Shown here piece by piece: positions 16,239-58,519 of a DNA stretch of 58,519 bases. The notes below the pieces were generated by a model, which saw only the letters and a list, made by a program, of their open reading frames with translations, was not told the origin of the DNA and made no database searches. The position numbers and the translations under genes are program-made. The DNA is taken from NCBI GenBank assembly GCA_035533875.1, contig DATLSZ010000033.1, positions 1 through 58,519 on the forward strand, in the 5' to 3' direction. Each line of letters begins with the position of its first letter. The first letter of the stretch is position 1. The DNA comes from Candidatus Acidiferrales bacterium (GTDB taxonomy: Bacteria; Patescibacteriota; Microgenomatia; Levybacterales; UBA12049).

Positions 16239-17000
16239 TTAATTCGCTCCTGTCATCACAAACACCATCCGCAGCTGCCCAACAGAAACAAGACTCTGCA
16301 CCTTTGCCGATTGGAAAAGACTGCTTGCTTGTTTGTCGATTGAAATAATTTTCCCGACAATCAGCTCTGGCGGAAATCCATTTCCTTGCATGTCGAGATT
16401 ACCCTTTGTTATGACAATATCATTTTTCTCGAGTTTGTCTGTCAAAACGACATTATCAAGAACAATGCTTCCTCCGTCCTGCGCTTTGACAATGCCAGAT
16501 GCGGAAGTCTTGACTGTTTCTGCGGTAAAAGATGTTGACGGATCGGTCAAAAGAGTCACGAGAGAAATATGTGGTGTTGTGCTGGCAACTTTACCGACAA
16601 TATTATTTTTATACACTACGACATCACCCTTATGGATGGCGTCCTGATCTCCTTTATCAATAAGAAGAGCGTTTTGTTGTGTTCCGACAACATTCGCTGG
16701 TAATAATTTTTGAGGCGTTGGTGTCGTTGTCTGGAATTGGTCATGCAGCGCCTGGTTATCTTTCTGCACTTCCTGCATCTGAGCAAGCTGCACACGCAGC
16801 TGACTGTTTTCTTCTTGGAGCTGCTGCTGTGATGCTGGTATATCTGTTGGTTTTGAACGTATACCGAACGTCCACTGTTGGATCGGCAAGGTAATCATTT
16901 GCAAACCTGCAGTCAATGGATTTTGAAAAAAGAAAAGGATGAGGATAGAAAGAAAGAGAAAAATTGAAAAAATTGGAAAAACAGCCTTGACACCTTTCAT
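16239..17000 (-). CDS. mreC: Rod shape-determining protein MreC
   Basis: TM, coiled coil (LQEENSQLR), IDKG..D.I.KGD.V and FPPELIVGKI; start ATG 17000 with TACAAT 7 nt upstream. Confidence 0.9.
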   Translation of the reverse strand: MKGVKAVFPIFSIFLFLSILILFFFQNPLTAGLQMITLPIQQWTFGIRSKPTDIPASQQQLQEENSQLRVQLAQMQEVQKDNQALHDQFQTTTPTPQKLLPANVVGTQQNALLIDKGDQDAIHKGDVVVYKNNIVGKVASTTPHISLVTLLTDPSTSFTAETVKTSASGIVKAQDGGSIVLDNVVLTDKLEKNDIVITKGNLDMQGNGFPPELIVGKIISIDKQASSLFQSAKVQSLVSVGQLRMVFVMTGAN

Positions 17001-17049
17001 ACCTGCTATTGTAGCCGCTTTGGATCCAAGAGGCAACCCACCGATGGTA

Positions 17050-18009
17050 TTAATAAGCCATCGAATAATTAAATACCTTTGAAGAATGAGTAAGCGCCCC
17101 AATAGAAATGACATCAACTCCTGTTGCTGCCCAATCGGTAAGGTTGGTCTGATTAATTTCCCCCGATGCTTCAATGAGAACGAGATCATAAATCGGAAGT
17201 TTCCGCAGAGACTCTACAAAGTTTTGAGCTGCTGCCGGCTTAAAATTATCAAGTAAGATGGCCATCATTTTTGGCTTTTGTTGTTTTGCATTCTCCCGAG
17301 TAAAAGTATGAAGAACTGCATTCGCCTGAGAAAGGGTATCAACTTCAATTTCAAAATAATCCATCGCCGAACGCATACATCGTGTCACTGCTTCTGCTGC
17401 TGCCTTTTCACTAGATTCTAACCCTAATTCTTTTTGCAGCATGCCGAGATGATTGTCTTTTATAAGAATTTCATCAGCCAAACTCAACCGGTGCGTCAAT
17501 CCCCCGCCGACTGCTACAGCTTTTTTATCAACAAACATCAGAGGTGTTTTTCTAAGCGTTGCGATGAAAGGAGCTCCCGGAATGTTTTTAATAGAAGCAA
17601 TAAGATTATTCGTTCCGGTCGCGATGCCGGACATTCTGCCGAGAATATTTAGAATCGTTCTTTCATATGCAAGTATTTCTGTATTCTCTCCTGAAACTTC
17701 TGCGAGGACATCATCTTGGACAAGATGCGCGCCGTCGATAACTTTTGGTTTGAAAACCAAAGTGGTATGTTTGGCAAGCAACTCGGTGAGTTCTTCTATC
17801 CCTGCTGCAATGCCCTCTTGTCTGCTGACAATTTTTGTTCTGCCTTTCCCTTTAAGTGCGAGTGTCTGTGAGGTGATATCATCATGCACTGCGTCAGCCT
17901 GTATCATCCAAAGAAAAAGTTCGGTGATATGATCTCGATAGAATGTTTTTGAGACAGACAGCTCGCCGGATTTTTGAAAATATTTCTGTATTGCGTCAAT
18001 TCTTTTCAT
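17050..18009 (-). CDS. nadC: Quinolinate phosphoribosyltransferase
   Basis: ER..LN, TLRKTP, THRLSL, ILIKDNH, EIEVD, LLDNF and IEASG motifs. Confidence 0.93.
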   Translation of the reverse strand: MKRIDAIQKYFQKSGELSVSKTFYRDHITELFLWMIQADAVHDDITSQTLALKGKGRTKIVSRQEGIAAGIEELTELLAKHTTLVFKPKVIDGAHLVQDDVLAEVSGENTEILAYERTILNILGRMSGIATGTNNLIASIKNIPGAPFIATLRKTPLMFVDKKAVAVGGGLTHRLSLADEILIKDNHLGMLQKELGLESSEKAAAEAVTRCMRSAMDYFEIEVDTLSQANAVLHTFTRENAKQQKPKMMAILLDNFKPAAAQNFVESLRKLPIYDLVLIEASGEINQTNLTDWAATGVDVISIGALTHSSKVFNYSMAY

Positions 18010-18010
18010 G

Positions 18011-19009
18011 TTAACTAATAGCAAACATCCGCTCAATCGGAAGCCTTGCCCTGTCTGCGATTTCTTTCTCAACTTTCACTTCGTATTCTAGATTGATCAA
18101 ACTATTGAGCAGTTTCTCTGTTGTTATCATCTTCATATACTCACATACCATATCTTTTCTCAATGGATAAAATTTCTTCTTGGGATTTTGCTTTTTTAAT
18201 TGATGGATAATTCCAGTCTCAGTCGCAACAACAAACGAATCTTTGGGAGATTCTTTTGCGTGCTTGAGCATACCACTTGTTGAAAGAATATGAGTTTTCT
18301 CCTCGGGGATCTGTTTTGTCGCGACGTAATGCATGCAATCCGAGACACACCCGCATTCCGGATGGATCAGAAATTCTGCAGCCGGATACCTGCCTAATTT
18401 CTTTATAACATCTTGTGCTTTGACCCGTGCATGCACGTGGCACTCGCCAGGATAGACATAAAAATTCTTCCGTCCTGTTTTGCGAGCAACGTAATCTCCC
18501 AAAAAAAGATCGGGAAGGAAAATAATCTCCCGGTCATCAGGAATTGACTGGACCACCTGTACGGCATTTGTTGATGTGACGCAATAATCGCTTTCCGCTT
18601 TGACTTCTGCAGTTGTGTTGACATAACTGACGACAAGCGCCTTTGGATAACGGCGTTTCCACTTCCTCAGTTCATCCGCGTCAATTGATGCAGCCAGACT
18701 GCAGCCCGCATTGGGATCGGGGATCAATACTGTTTTTTCAGGCGAGAAAATCGCGGCACTTTCCGCCATAAAATGCACACCACAAAAGACAATCAATTTT
18801 TGAGGAGCTTGGGCTGCTTTTTTGGCGATACCCAATGAATCTCCGACAAAATCTGCAATATCCTGAATATCCGGTATTTGATAATTGTGTGCGATGATCA
18901 AGGCGTTACGTTTTTCTTTCCATGCGAGGATTTGCTTCATCAGTTCGCGGCGTCTTTTTGGCGATGGTTCTTCAGGCTGAGCTCCCGGTACTTGCATTAT
19001 CGCTTGCAT
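18011..19009 (-). CDS. nadA: Quinolinate synthase A
   Basis: AHNYQ, FCGVHFMAE, GCSLA, YVNT, ECHVH, HPEC and CEYMK motifs. Confidence 0.96.
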   Translation of the reverse strand: MQAIMQVPGAQPEEPSPKRRRELMKQILAWKEKRNALIIAHNYQIPDIQDIADFVGDSLGIAKKAAQAPQKLIVFCGVHFMAESAAIFSPEKTVLIPDPNAGCSLAASIDADELRKWKRRYPKALVVSYVNTTAEVKAESDYCVTSTNAVQVVQSIPDDREIIFLPDLFLGDYVARKTGRKNFYVYPGECHVHARVKAQDVIKKLGRYPAAEFLIHPECGCVSDCMHYVATKQIPEEKTHILSTSGMLKHAKESPKDSFVVATETGIIHQLKKQNPKKKFYPLRKDMVCEYMKMITTEKLLNSLINLEYEVKVEKEIADRARLPIERMFAIS

Positions 19010-19014
19010 GTAGT

Positions 19015-19033
19015 TAGTGTATAATATACACCA
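19015..19033. promoter_or_regulatory. NrtR-type operator palindrome overlapping divergent nadA/nadB promoters
   Basis: TAGTGT-ATAATAT-ACACCA fits the GT-N7-AC NrtR core; an NrtR domain is encoded in the adjacent gene. Confidence 0.7.
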
Positions 19034-19038
19034 TCAAC

Positions 19039-21126
19039 ATGCAACCCACAAAAACAGTTGATTTTATTGTCATTGGCTCAGGTATCGCAGGGCTCAACAC
19101 GGCTCGTATTCTCTCTTCATATGGCAATGTTCTCATCGTTACTAAAAGTAACATAACTGATTCCTCAACTTCTCTTGCACAGGGAGGAATTGCCGCTGTT
19201 GTAAAGAATGATGACTCAGCAGCATCTCATATACAAGACACCCTCGATGCCGGATATCAGCATAATAATAAACGTGCGGTAGAATTTTTGGTGAAAGGCG
19301 GCAGACAGGCGGTTACGACGCTAACAAAACTTGGTGTGCAGTTTGACCGGAACTCGCAAGGTGATTTCATCTCGTCTTTTGAAGCCGCTCATTCCTCCCC
19401 TCGTATTCTTCACGCAACAGATTTCACCGGACAGGAAATAGAAAAAGTTCTTGTTGCCGATGTTTTAAAAAAACAATCAATAGAAGTCTGGACAAATACT
19501 TCGGCAGTTGATCTTATCGTACAAGATAACATTTGTTATGGCATACAAGTTCTCAAAAACGGAATTTTCTCTTCAATTTTTGCAAGAGCAGTAGTTATCG
19601 CGACAGGCGGCGTCGGATACCTCTATCAATGGACAGCTAATCCGAGTGTCGCAACAGGAGACGGTATCGCTATTGCCCTTCGAGCTGGAGCAGCAATGAA
19701 AGATCTGGAATTTATCCAGTTCCACCCCACAGCGCTTGCGGAAAACGCATCACCGCTCCTGCTTCTCTCAGAAGCGCTCAGAGGCGACGGTGCGGTGTTG
19801 ATAAATGCCAAACACGAACGCTTTATGCCACAGATCCATCCGCTTGCCGAACTCGCACCGCGAGATGTTGTCGCACGCGCAATTTTCCAAGAACAGAAAA
19901 ATGGCACTGTTTATCTGGACATCAGCCACCGAAAAAAAGATTTTATTATGATGCGTTTTCCCAATATCACCAAAGAACTGAAAAAAAGAGGCTGGGATCT
20001 TACCCGTGAACCCATCCCGGTAACTCCTGCTGCTCATTTTCTTTGCGGCGGCATTAAAACCGATCGGCATGGACGAACATCAATTAAAAATCTTTTTGCA
20101 TATGGCGAGACCGCCGCAACAGGAGTGCACGGAGCAAACCGCCTTGCTTCAAATTCCCTATTGGAAGGCATGGTATTTTCGGATCAAATTCAGTATTGTA
20201 TCGCTGATTTACCACAAACACCACACATAATCCCGGTACAAAAAGTCAGTATTACCAAACAAAACCGTGAAGATATCGACAAGCAAGTCCGGAAAATTAT
20301 GTGGCAATATGTGGGAATCATACGAACTTCTCAAGGATTGGCAATTGCTCGTAAAAAACTTGAAGCGTTACAATTGGAAATGCACCAAGTGGATGGAATA
20401 AATGCATCGATCATGCAGACAAAAAATATACTGGCTACAGCTCTTCTTATAACAAAAGCTGCTCAAAAACGGAAAAAAAGTCTTGGTACACATTTTATAA
20501 CGAATTCTCAAACTGATTTGCTACAATACACTGGAGTTATGCAACAGATCTCTATAAAAGTATCACTCGTTATTTTCCGGATTGAATCGGATTCTCTCTG
20601 TGTATATATACCCAACGGCAAACTTCCTTCTGAAAATATTTCACAGACAGTATCCCTGGATGATCAGGTAAAAGAAATTTTTCATGCTAGTCTCGGATTC
20701 CTGCTTGGCACTAATTATGCCGAACAGCTTTATACGGTTTCAGAAAAGAAAAATGAGATAACAATCGCGTATTATATTTTGCTATCTGATAGTGACAAAG
20801 TGAAAGCAAGAACAGAGCATTGGAAAAAAATTTCAGGCAAAGATCAACAGCAAATCATTGCATACGCAATCCAGCGGTTGCGATGGAAAATAGAATATAC
20901 CAATGTCGTATACAGTCTGCTCCCAAAAACGTTTACTTTAGGTGATCTGCAAAAGACGTATGAAATTATCCTTGGCAAAAAACTTGATAAACGGAATTTC
21001 AGGAAAAAAATTCTTTCGCTGCAATTTCTCAAGCAAACCGGAGAAAAAAGGACAGACAATGCCCGTCCTGCGCAGATGTATACCTTCACCAAACGCTCCC
21101 CGATGCTTGTCAAAGTGTTTTCTTAA
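19039..21126 (+). CDS. nadB: L-aspartate oxidase fused in frame to an NrtR-like Nudix/winged-HTH regulator
   Basis: IGSGIAG, AQGGI, EAAHS..RILHA, EFIQFHPT, SEALRG, PRDVVAR, GVHGANRLASNSLLEG; then wHTH FTL.DLQKTYEIILGKKLDKRNFRKKI...RPAQMY; no stop between. Confidence 0.9.
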   Translation: MQPTKTVDFIVIGSGIAGLNTARILSSYGNVLIVTKSNITDSSTSLAQGGIAAVVKNDDSAASHIQDTLDAGYQHNNKRAVEFLVKGGRQAVTTLTKLGVQFDRNSQGDFISSFEAAHSSPRILHATDFTGQEIEKVLVADVLKKQSIEVWTNTSAVDLIVQDNICYGIQVLKNGIFSSIFARAVVIATGGVGYLYQWTANPSVATGDGIAIALRAGAAMKDLEFIQFHPTALAENASPLLLLSEALRGDGAVLINAKHERFMPQIHPLAELAPRDVVARAIFQEQKNGTVYLDISHRKKDFIMMRFPNITKELKKRGWDLTREPIPVTPAAHFLCGGIKTDRHGRTSIKNLFAYGETAATGVHGANRLASNSLLEGMVFSDQIQYCIADLPQTPHIIPVQKVSITKQNREDIDKQVRKIMWQYVGIIRTSQGLAIARKKLEALQLEMHQVDGINASIMQTKNILATALLITKAAQKRKKSLGTHFITNSQTDLLQYTGVMQQISIKVSLVIFRIESDSLCVYIPNGKLPSENISQTVSLDDQVKEIFHASLGFLLGTNYAEQLYTVSEKKNEITIAYYILLSDSDKVKARTEHWKKISGKDQQQIIAYAIQRLRWKIEYTNVVYSLLPKTFTLGDLQKTYEIILGKKLDKRNFRKKILSLQFLKQTGEKRTDNARPAQMYTFTKRSPMLVKVFS

Positions 21127-21133
21127 AGAATTA

Positions 21134-22306
21134 TTACCGCAGTCCACCGATTACCTTAACCCGTTCAAGGAGTAAATCATCTTCAAGAACTTTTCCTGTA
21201 CCGCGGACAACTGACGTCAAAGAATCGTTGGAAACAACCACCGGCATATGGATACGTTCTGCCAACAATAAATCCAAACCGGAAAGCTGTGCTCCTCCTC
21301 CGGTTAATAAAACTCCCTGTTCCAAGATATCGGGGAGCAGTTCCGGCGGTGTCTCTTCCAGAACGTCAGCAACTGTTTGGGTAATCTGCGTAAGAATTGG
21401 TGATAACGCTTCGCGAATCTCAGCTTCGGTAATCTTAAGACTTCGCGGCAAACCGGTCTCAATATCCCGTCCCCGGATTATCATCATTTTCTCAAGATGC
21501 GGATTGCCTTCAATAACTTTATCTTTTTCATCTTTGCTATCAATCTGTTCCTTCAATTTTGAATTTTGTCGCGAGGATTCCCCTTGAGGGGAAACTTTGA
21601 ACTTTACATTTTTTTTATACGCACTGCCAATTCTCATTTTTATTTCCTCTGATGTTCTCTCTCCAATAATCAAGCCATGCCGCAGGCGGATATAATGCAG
21701 GATTGATTGATCCATATCATCTCCGGCGAGCTTGATTGACCGGCCGACAACAATACCGCCGAGTGAGATAACTGCGATTTCGGTTGTTCCTCCGCCAATA
21801 TCAACGACCATTGAACCTTTTGACTGAAATATCGAGACGCCTTCCCCAATCGCAGCTGCCATAGGCTCTTCGATAAGGTATGCTTCCCGTGCTCCTGCGG
21901 AAAGCGCAGCTTCCCATACCGCCCGCCTTTCGACTTCAGTGACAGCGGAAGGAATACCGATCACGACTTTAGGTCTTGCCAAAAGACGCGGCAGCGCACT
22001 TCCCATCTCATGAACTTGCTTTATATAATGGGCTATCATCGCTTCGGTCGCGTCAAAATCAGCGATCACACCGCCGCGGAGCGGCCTGATGGTCAGAATT
22101 GATGCCGGCGTTTTGCCAAGCATCTTTTTTGCATCAGTACCAATTGCGATAATCCGCTTTGTTTTTTTGTGTTTGGCAACAACAGACGGTTCGCGTATCA
22201 CGATTCCTTTATCTTTGACAAACACTAGTGTATTGGCTGTCCCCAAATCAATGCCGATGTCATGGGAGAAGAGACTGAAGAATTTATTGACGGGAGAAAA
22301 GTTCAT
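21134..22306 (-). CDS. mreB: Rod shape-determining protein MreB
   Basis: IGIDLGTANT, EPMAAAIG, DIGGGTTE and LTGGGA motifs; carries a low-complexity insertion. Confidence 0.96.
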   Translation of the reverse strand: MNFSPVNKFFSLFSHDIGIDLGTANTLVFVKDKGIVIREPSVVAKHKKTKRIIAIGTDAKKMLGKTPASILTIRPLRGGVIADFDATEAMIAHYIKQVHEMGSALPRLLARPKVVIGIPSAVTEVERRAVWEAALSAGAREAYLIEEPMAAAIGEGVSIFQSKGSMVVDIGGGTTEIAVISLGGIVVGRSIKLAGDDMDQSILHYIRLRHGLIIGERTSEEIKMRIGSAYKKNVKFKVSPQGESSRQNSKLKEQIDSKDEKDKVIEGNPHLEKMMIIRGRDIETGLPRSLKITEAEIREALSPILTQITQTVADVLEETPPELLPDILEQGVLLTGGGAQLSGLDLLLAERIHMPVVVSNDSLTSVVRGTGKVLEDDLLLERVKVIGGLR

Positions 22307-57809: not shown

Positions 57810-58519
57810 ATGATCCTCATAGTCGATTTTGGTTCGCAGACTGCTCACCTCATCGGCAGACGATTGCGGCAAATTGGCGCAAAAACAGCATACACAAACC
57901 CTGAAGACGCACTTTCCGAAATAAAGAAGCAAAAACCAAATGGTATCGTCTTATCCGGCGGACCGGATTCAGTATACGCAGAAGGCGCACCAACGGTCTC
58001 AAAAGATATTTTTAGCCTCGGTATCCCGATACTCGGTATCTGCTATGGCTGGCAGTTAATGGCGAAGCTTCTCGGTGCAAGTGTTAAAAATACCGCAAAA
58101 GAATACGGACCGGAAAAAGTTACTGTTGTAAAACCCCTCGGTATCCTGAGCAAACTCCCCAAAAAACAATTTACTGCCATCGTTTCTCACGGAGATACTG
58201 TTATGTCATTGCCTGAGGGATTTGTCAAAACCGCAACAACGCAGCAGGTCGAGTTTACTGGGGTACAAAATATTGCAAAACATTTATATGGCATTCAATT
58301 TCATCCGGAAGCACATCATACAGAATGTGGACTTTCGGTTTTACAAAACTTCGCAGCAATTTGTAAAGAAGAACTTGAACCAACAGTTCTCGATCCGGAA
58401 AAAATTATTGCGGATATTAAAAAAACTGTCGGCAATAAGAAAGTAATCTGCGCAGTTTCCGGCGGGGTTGATTCAACAGTCGCCGCTTTTCTTATCGGAA
58501 AAGCTATAGGGAAAAATCT
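57810..58519 (+). CDS. guaA: GMP synthase (glutamine-hydrolysing), 5' part; runs off the window end
   Basis: ILIVDFGSQ, LSGGP.SVY, LGICYG.Q, SHGD, QFHPE..HT and AVSGGVDSTV motifs. Confidence 0.95.
   Translation, partial: MILIVDFGSQTAHLIGRRLRQIGAKTAYTNPEDALSEIKKQKPNGIVLSGGPDSVYAEGAPTVSKDIFSLGIPILGICYGWQLMAKLLGASVKNTAKEYGPEKVTVVKPLGILSKLPKKQFTAIVSHGDTVMSLPEGFVKTATTQQVEFTGVQNIAKHLYGIQFHPEAHHTECGLSVLQNFAAICKEELEPTVLDPEKIIADIKKTVGNKKVICAVSGGVDSTVAAFLIGKAIGKN

Follow-up and report, generated by a model that had tools for sequence, protein, structure and literature searches.

A nadB::nrtR gene fusion in Patescibacteria with a conserved promoter-like motif at its internal junction

PutA, a proline dehydrogenase, carries an N-terminal ribbon-helix-helix domain and has been demonstrated to switch its DNA binding with flavin redox state, and NadR is widespread in its clade. 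To our knowledge, the fusions seen in PutA, NadR and BirA, textbook origins of regulators, are ancient and have no intermediates left, and we know of no nested second product for NadR. In enterobacterial NadR, a helix-turn-helix (HTH) is joined to nicotinamide mononucleotide adenylyltransferase and ribosylnicotinamide kinase, and the enzyme domains are still active (PMC2330246). NrtR, the Nudix-related transcriptional regulator of nicotinamide adenine dinucleotide (NAD) metabolism, has operators that as a rule are symmetrical over 21 bp and have GT-N7-AC as their core (Rodionov et al. 2008, PMC2330246); the Shewanella structures 3GZ5 and 3GZ6 and a report on M. smegmatis NrtR (PMC6800001) serve as references. 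For the mycobacterial divergent nrtR/nadABC arrangement, autorepression is described in PMC6800001 and in a table of PMC2330246. Here we describe a locus on contig DATLSZ010000033.1 of assembly GCA_035533875.1, a tiny soil bacterium that GTDB places in the Patescibacteriota; the whole stretch analysed, 58,519 nt, is referred to as the window. Our analysis confirmed that an open reading frame (ORF) in the window carries an L-aspartate oxidase (NadB) and an NrtR-type regulator, both intact, in a single frame.

Like NrtR, the regulator part of this protein has a predicted Nudix-like fold and a PF21906 winged helix, is associated with a 21-bp GT-N7-AC palindrome at a divergent nad promoter, and is encoded near nadA, nadB and nadC. 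Unlike NrtR, it is covalently joined to NadB, and its Nudix-like domain is ~30 amino acids (aa) shorter and lacks the Nudix box and the RDPR and LAFDH segments. As in PutA, a flavin adenine dinucleotide (FAD) enzyme of the pathway and a repressor domain share one polypeptide that is linked to the divergent control region of its own operon; unlike in PutA, DNA binding would fall to a complete regulator at the C-terminus that includes an effector-type domain. The locus resembles NadR in fusing an NAD-pathway enzyme to a repressor of NAD biosynthesis genes, but has another enzyme, another DNA-binding fold and another order of domains. With AraR of Bacteroides and NadQ of Agrobacterium, its best structural and PDB sequence matches, it shares the Nudix-fold plus winged-helix superfamily; those proteins, in contrast, are not fused to an enzyme and have other regulons and operators. 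At the sequence level, an enzyme and a DNA-binding module in one polypeptide, with an operator of their own pathway at their own promoter, were found in four lineages. The fused ORF is laid out as follows.

19039..21126, + strand: fused ORF, 695 codons, open without an internal stop
19039..20505, + strand: NadB (L-aspartate oxidase) module, aa 1-489, with the usual NadB C-terminus ...SLGTHFITN
20506..20538, + strand: linker of 11 codons (SQTDLLQYTGV), the former nadB-nrtR intergenic spacer; the junction peptide of the fused protein is SLGTHFITNSQTDLLQYTGVMQQISIK
20519..20527, + strand: TGCTACAAT, a promoter-like motif of the extended -10 type at a distance of 11 nt from the internal ATG, apparently the retained nrtR promoter
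20533-20536, + strand: GGAG, 2 nt from the ATG
20539..20541, + strand: in-frame ATG of Met501, start of the free homologues and start codon of the ancestral free nrtR
20539..20898, + strand: shortened, degenerate Nudix-like effector domain, aa 501-620
20911..21087, + strand: NrtR-type winged-helix DNA-binding domain (PF21906), 88-93 bits
21124..21126, + strand: TAA stop codon of the fused ORF; the convergent mreB ends 7 nt beyond

Residues 7-488 score 524.3 bits against the NadB equivalog TIGR00551 (cut-off 452.75), with Pfam matches to PF00890 at aa 8-374 and PF02910 at aa 415-489. The module aligns with residues 5-527 of E. coli NadB (1CHU) and preserves the active-site motifs, its conserved segments being fEaaHS, QFHPTAL, LAPRDVVARAI, PAAHFLCGG and HGANRLASNSLLE; the FAD motif GxGxxG near the N-terminus reads GSGIAG (aa 13-18). 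The motifs around E121, H244, R290, H351 and R386, which we take to be the active-site numbering of the E. coli enzyme, are all kept. From this conservation and the neighbouring nadA and nadC genes, we infer that the module would convert L-aspartate to iminoaspartate. At the other end of the protein, PF21906 (NrtR_WHD) matches aa 625-683 with 88.3 bits against a cut-off of 27, and with 93 bits in a six-frame search; this winged helix is nearly invariant among relatives, the LDKRNFRKKILSL stretch included. A preliminary reading made without database searches (the sequence-only reading) had seen a full L-aspartate oxidase running without a stop into a degenerate Nudix domain and an NrtR-like winged HTH, and the scores of 524 bits for TIGR00551 and 88 bits for PF21906 bear this out. 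The junction features that it picked out are likewise present, with TGCTACAAT at 20519-20527, GGAG at 20533-20536 and the in-frame ATG at 20539.

The nadB::nrtR fusion is genuine and is maintained by selection, which acts on both of its modules. Eight contigs, from four or more assemblies, encode the same 695 aa without a difference. Of these contigs, four were read, one from a Logan assembly of SRR8554501 and the others from three ENA assemblies, and each shows zero or one synonymous base change relative to the window. Three further 90%-identity clusters are fused as well, at 67-71% identity: P0002 (692 aa), P0003 (706 aa, on five contigs, one of them an NCBI metagenome-assembled genome (MAG)) and P0004 (694 aa). 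The fused lineages have the same linker in the LLQY frame, and Met501 is invariant in all four fused proteins. The frame has stayed open across ~30% protein divergence with synonymous sites scrambled, and selection is therefore needed to explain it. The three further clusters are single-ORF NadB-NrtR proteins of the kind that the sequence-only reading proposed to look for; together with the eight identical contigs, they overturn the alternative that it had kept in reserve, a recent stop-codon loss or an assembly error.

The fusion is restricted to one small clade. NrtR itself, its operators, autoregulated divergent nad operons and enzyme-repressor fusions are known. When the C-terminal 195 aa were compared with 1.84 billion representatives (50%-identity clustering) in a profile-free scan, a single fused cluster was recovered, P0002; the other 34 matches at E<1e-30 are free-standing proteins of 143-217 aa, nearly all of which begin at the position of Met501. 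Within the GTDB family of the genome, NrtR occurs in 12 of 194 species and NadB above its curated cut-off in 9 of 194, and the two share one frame in 1 of 194, the host genome only. None of the best 80 NrtR loci from 185,579 species representatives (relatives at most 46% identical) has nadB fused upstream, and 16 of them have nadA, nadB or nadC nearby. A metagenome scan for additional fused loci gave none among the matches listed, the best being only 49% identical, and no NadB-NrtR fusion was found in the searchable literature.

The closest NadB relatives compared at the junction (62-69% identity) show how the two genes are arranged elsewhere. In L177 and L178, nadB stands alone, beside mreB or an uncharacterised gene. 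In G003/L012, L179, L180 and L181, nadB ends with TAA and nrtR follows after a spacer of 23 nt (G003), ~30 nt (L180 and L181) or 118 nt (L179); the nrtR ATG of L181 is already in frame with nadB, so that the TAA alone separates the genes. In P0158 the genes overlap: NadB extends to ...HFIKNPRDNLLQYT and its stop, with a C-terminus reading ...NPRDNLLQYT and a 4-nt overlap with the nrtR ATG. These junction states are one or two mutations apart, and a single JGI sample (3300050821) contains both the fused P0004 and the overlapping P0158. The sequence-only reading had looked to a stop near HF(I)T in close relatives, combined with a TAA here in the raw reads, as evidence against the fusion. Such a stop does occur in some of them, after HFI(K/T)(N/Q/T), but others share the fusion.

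On both sides of the linker, the free proteins mark the old gene boundaries. Free NadBs of the relatives end where the fused NadB module ends, and outside the clade all stop 2-5 residues past SLGTH(F/Y); separate genes are therefore the older condition. Free NrtR homologues, which at ~200 aa are the usual form in the wider family, align with query residues 1-8 on protein residues 1-9, and so begin at Met501. Read comparatively, the junction series shows an origin from adjacent nadB and nrtR genes. An nrtR of the short subfamily lay directly 3' of nadB, and loss of the nadB stop together with a frame-restoring change in the spacer created the 695-aa ORF. The linker (SQTDLLQYTG, 20491-20538) also aligns with DYPELLTHSG, the C-terminal tail of the longer E. 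coli NadB (residues ~515-527), a likeness that is probably accidental, since relatives have this DNA outside any coding region.

In the NrtR tree, the fused forms and G003 make up one clade (100/99) nested among free forms, with weak monophyly of the fused forms (66/74). In the NadB tree, the fused forms are a grade below a clade of six relatives (88/91), five of which are known with a separate downstream nrtR. A single fused clade was not rejected by the approximately unbiased (AU) test (p=0.106).

The junction retains a conserved DNA element. Three fused genes agree in every letter of GATTTGCTACAATACAC, and differ in the codons around it (CGG/CGA/CGT, CTT/CTC, GGT/GGC). Across 412 conserved, degenerate amino-acid columns, codons are identical in all three genes at 32%. 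The longest identical-codon run of the gene, 8/8, falls at aa 485-497 (probability 3.5e-4 at this site and 0.014 anywhere in the gene), and the 20-mer at 20512-20531 is the most conserved of the gene, with 19/20 positions against a mean of 58%. All four unfused relatives with DNA (G003, L179, L180 and L181) carry TG(C/T)TA(C/A)AAT within 4-9 nt of the nrtR ATG, at distances of 4 or 7, 8 and 9 nt, in non-coding DNA and in different frames. Since the motif is kept in these non-coding, differently framed contexts, it is the DNA that is constrained and not the peptide. The motif of L179 is set apart from nadB by a hairpin and 118 nt, which fits independent transcription of nrtR.

The same motif is frequent at gene starts across the host genome (1.28 Mb in 39 contigs, 75% complete). 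TGnTAnAAT occurs 430 times. An ORF of 100 aa or more starts exactly 6 nt after it in 53 cases, at 7, 8 and 9 nt in 16, 12 and 15 cases (43 of the 430), and at 11 nt in 7; two control patterns gave mostly 0-2 cases per distance bin and at most 4. By this positional evidence, TGnTAnAAT is the genome's main promoter type for leaderless or short-leader genes. An extended -10 directly ahead of the start codon, the layout expected of leaderless mRNAs, is common in this genome. Among 4604 in-frame internal ATGs in ORFs of at least 300 aa, only 6 (0.13%) have TGnTAnAAT 4-12 nt upstream, Met501 among them. Three of the other five were translated (a TsaD-like protein, a sensor kinase and a protein of unknown function) and look like chance occurrences, not fusions. 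An mRNA started from the junction motif would have a leader of ~5 nt.

Other candidate signals at the junction fared less well. The GGAG was considered as a Shine-Dalgarno site and set aside: at 2 nt from the ATG it misfits the weak 8-10 nt spacing of the genome, its position reads AAAAGCT or AAAAGAT in the other fused genes, so that it is specific to the host genome, and GGAG lies within 20 nt of the start in ~70 of 1004 ORFs. The suggestion of two products in the sequence-only reading thus survives in part: a conserved promoter-like element and the original nrtR start make it a reasonable expectation, while GGAG as a ribosome-binding site falls away. A simple scan, which by design excludes the extended -10 class, found no classical -35/-10 promoter at the junction. 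A second full operator at the junction was also rejected, as only the half-site ATACAC is shared (12/29 positions by eye). The nadB start (19026-19047) and the internal nrtR start (20526-20547) share the layout ATACAC-7 nt-ATGCAAC, written out as TATAATATACAC-CATCAAC-ATGCAACCC at the former and TACAATACAC-TGGAGTT-ATGCAACAG at the latter. An operator half-site at the internal promoter is possible.

The C-terminal module is predicted to fold as a two-domain regulator of the Nudix and winged-helix type. An AlphaFold2 model of residues 491-695, built with 98 homologues, reached a predicted local distance difference test score (pLDDT) of 90.5 and a predicted template modelling score of 0.85, with a mean pLDDT of ~51 for linker residues 491-500. 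A Foldseek search with this model returned AraR (5bs6), Shewanella NrtR on DNA (3gz6) and NadQ (7q91) at template modelling (TM) scores of 0.73-0.77 over both domains (0.76 for 5bs6 and 0.73 for 7q91), and AraR, NrtR and NadQ were again the best matches in a PDB sequence search. The N-terminal domain thus has a Nudix fold in a confident model, yet Pfam NUDIX (PF00293) has no match in aa 500-620 even at E<=1. When the domain is aligned with canonical NrtRs, KLPSENISQTVSLDDQVKEIFHASLGF stands at the position of the GX5EX7REUXEE box, where the catalytic residues are gone and KEIFHASLG replaces RELxEETG. The PFxxxWA loop and the GG..E..REUXEE, RDPR and LAFDH segments are missing or replaced, so that the box is lost and three conserved segments are deleted.

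This degeneracy is older than the fusion, because the same shortened domain is found in free-standing NrtRs of ~200 aa in related genomes. Their neighbours, named from N-terminal sequence reading and tblastn and not from Pfam, include pncB and pncA in a pncB-nrtR-permease-pncA array (G016), a pncB-like gene (G025), pncB (G051) and, in a Gottesmanbacteria MAG, nadC-nadA/nadB. The winged-helix part alone matches the NrtR equivalog NF050029, and the module is a member of the wider superfamily, outside the ADP-ribose-responsive NrtR equivalog.

The predicted target of the regulator lies between nadB and the divergent nadA-nadC unit.

19014..19034, no strand assigned: NrtR-type operator TTAGTGTATAATATACACCAT, 21 bp, inside the 29-bp nadA/nadB spacer and nearly filling it
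18011..19009, - strand: nadA (quinolinate synthase), 332 aa, divergent from nadB; PF02445 in syntenic loci
17050..18009, - strand: nadC (quinolinate phosphoribosyltransferase), probably 319 aa with the start MKRIDAIQ, second in the nadA-nadC unit

The operator has a perfect 15-bp core, GTGTATA-A-TATACAC, with the GT-N7-AC positions of the NrtR family rule (PMC2330246). Across loci, the 29 bp that separate the start codons of nadA and nadB contain TTAGTGTATAATATACAC(C/T)A, and the operator core does not vary among nine loci with a gene divergence of ~30%. It covers a -10-like TATAAT on the + strand and TATATT on the - strand. At 0-1 mismatch the operator is unique in the genome, where none is expected by chance; the only 2-mismatch match and the similar 3-mismatch site that was inspected (C16:11122 and C16:17230) lie in coding regions, look like chance and were rejected as further sites, and the rest of the 75%-complete genome yielded no NrtR palindrome. 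Related palindromes (GTGTAATATTTACAC, GTGTTAAATATACAC and GTGTATTAATTACAC) with TTA/TAA-like flanks are found in G016 and G051, of two other genera, next to nrtR and NAD salvage genes. The whole assembled genome has one NrtR_WHD match, which leaves no visible source of repressor besides the fused gene. On this comparative evidence, the fused gene very likely represses itself and nadA-nadC through the predicted operator. L177 (2665-2707) and L178 (2960-3001) retain the operator (TTAGTGTATACTATACACTAG and TTAGTGTATAATATACACTAT) in a 41-bp spacer though no nrtR follows nadB; in these two, NrtR must be encoded elsewhere.

We consider the following overall explanation probable: a selected nadB::nrtR fusion that represses its own operator and also yields free NrtR from an internal promoter. 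The C-terminal winged helix would bind the 21-bp palindrome over both -10 boxes, repressing its own gene and nadA-nadC as a single-operator regulon for de novo NAD synthesis, and the fusion would couple the dose of repressor to that of enzyme. The old nrtR promoter TGCTACAAT inside the ORF may still fire, giving a short-leader mRNA and from it a free 195-aa NrtR; we lean cautiously towards this second product. As the internal promoter has no full operator, it could provide a basal supply of free repressor independent of the repressed promoter.

Several points weigh against this explanation. The synonymous-site test draws on just three fused DNA sequences. The 11-nt distance from promoter to ATG falls outside the 6-9 nt peak, and translation of a short-leader mRNA may be inefficient. 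ATACAC is common to the junction motif and the operator's right half, and conservation of the motif could reflect something besides a promoter. Operator binding and repression are deductions from comparative genomics and knowledge of the family, and on NF050029, the model of the characterised NrtR equivalog, the C-terminal module reaches just 71.7 of the 400 bits that the cut-off demands. The NrtR and NadB trees appear to leave the direction of change within the clade, fusion or its reverse, two-way. Finally, three junction states occur in close relatives, a lability that is compatible with the fused state being nearly neutral.

The strongest competitor grants that the fusion is real and holds the 695-aa protein to be its sole product, with TGCTACAAT and the ATG as functionless relics of the old gene boundary. 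It accounts directly for the 11-nt spacing off the genome's optimum, for a GGAG that is unconserved and too near the ATG, and for a simple -35/-10 scan without a promoter at the junction; Met501 and the MQQI stretch could moreover be conserved for the protein. What it explains poorly is the DNA. A functionless motif would have drifted over ~30% protein divergence, whereas the synonymous positions of H-F-N-D-L-L-Q-Y are all frozen in a gene with 32% identical codons, and the motif is kept in the non-coding spacers of unfused relatives, where it is an obvious nrtR promoter. We therefore hold this account to be doubtful, though it deserves more weight than any other competitor. At the opposite extreme, the ORF could be an artefact or a decaying locus, produced by an assembly or sequencing error or by an inconsequential, very recent stop loss. 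The stop after HFI(K/T)(N/Q/T) in some close relatives would suit such an account, but the identical protein on eight contigs from at least four assemblies, the frame kept open in four fused lineages at 67-71% identity and the intactness of both domains make it scarcely credible.

A further alternative concerns what the fused enzyme does for the regulator. NadB could act as a PutA-like trigger enzyme, its FAD redox state or its occupancy by substrate or NAD+ replacing the lost Nudix ligand site as the sensor, and would engage or release the operator through the attached winged helix. In the fullest form of this idea, a fusion from the operator-controlled promoter and a free NrtR from an intra-ORF promoter outside the operator would form mixed dimers in which NadB modulates operator binding, a trigger enzyme for NAD synthesis in an ultra-small bacterium. 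E. coli NadB is inhibited by NAD+, which would suit such a role, as would the missing Nudix box and several missing ligand-site segments. Active enzymes fused to repressors have precedents in PutA, NadR and BirA (PMC2330246). The degeneracy, however, predates the fusion and is common to many free ~200-aa regulators of the subfamily, and box-less Nudix folds can still bind effectors, L-arabinose in AraR and ATP or NAD in NadQ according to their PDB titles. Close relatives use separate genes with the same operator, and the linker is predicted to be flexible. We thus regard both the sensor role of NadB and its modulation of mixed dimers as improbable. Nothing found requires the NadB domain for sensing, and the step that the sequence-only reading took from a degenerate Nudix domain to a sensing NadB does not hold, the same domain being present in free-standing proteins.

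With the selected, self-repressing fusion as the preferred explanation, the main value of the locus lies in a natural junction series, in which the fused gene preserves a fossil promoter that probably still works. Closely related soil Patescibacteria hold one gene pair in separate, overlapping and fused states, so that the birth or reversal of an enzyme-regulator fusion, and its gain over two proteins, can be tested with a few natural variants. In this clade, de novo NAD synthesis would be under a one-operator circuit, and the junction would clearly exemplify a promoter within an ORF, against the background of a genome rich in extended -10 promoters at start codons.

Where the contigs suffice, gene order is kept in the fused lineages, with mreC-nadC-nadA on one strand, nadB::nrtR divergent and mreB convergent; the P0004 contig has a 250-aa NUDIX-like gene between the fused gene and mreB. 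The nadC orthologues in L002 and L003 are 319 aa long, carry PF02749 and PF01729 and directly follow nadA, and the alternative TTG start of nadC in the window (340 aa in the ORF list) would overlap nadA. Source names of the closest NadB/NrtR homologues include Patescibacteria group, Gottesmanbacteria, Roizmanbacteria and Levyibacteriota. Neither nadD (TIGR00482) nor NAPRTase (PF04095) was found in the 75%-complete genome, and an NAD synthase (PF02540) fragment at 58401-58514 of the window is cut by the contig end.

The NAD genes of the window occupy a slot between mreB and mreC-mreD-PBP2 (16239-22306). In G016, from another genus, the slot (L013 643-8789) holds a different NAD cassette on the same strand as mreB, made up of pncB, nrtR, a permease gene and pncA; 14 bp upstream of the permease start lies an NrtR palindrome. 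The mreB-mreC slot thus seems to hold interchangeable NAD modules that retain nrtR. Other long NrtR architectures were also seen: P0080 (550 aa) has an unannotated N-terminal part of 340 aa followed by NUDIX and NrtR_WHD, P0005-P0007 and P0142 are 374-404 aa long, and Woesearchaeota proteins carry two Nudix domains ahead of the winged helix.

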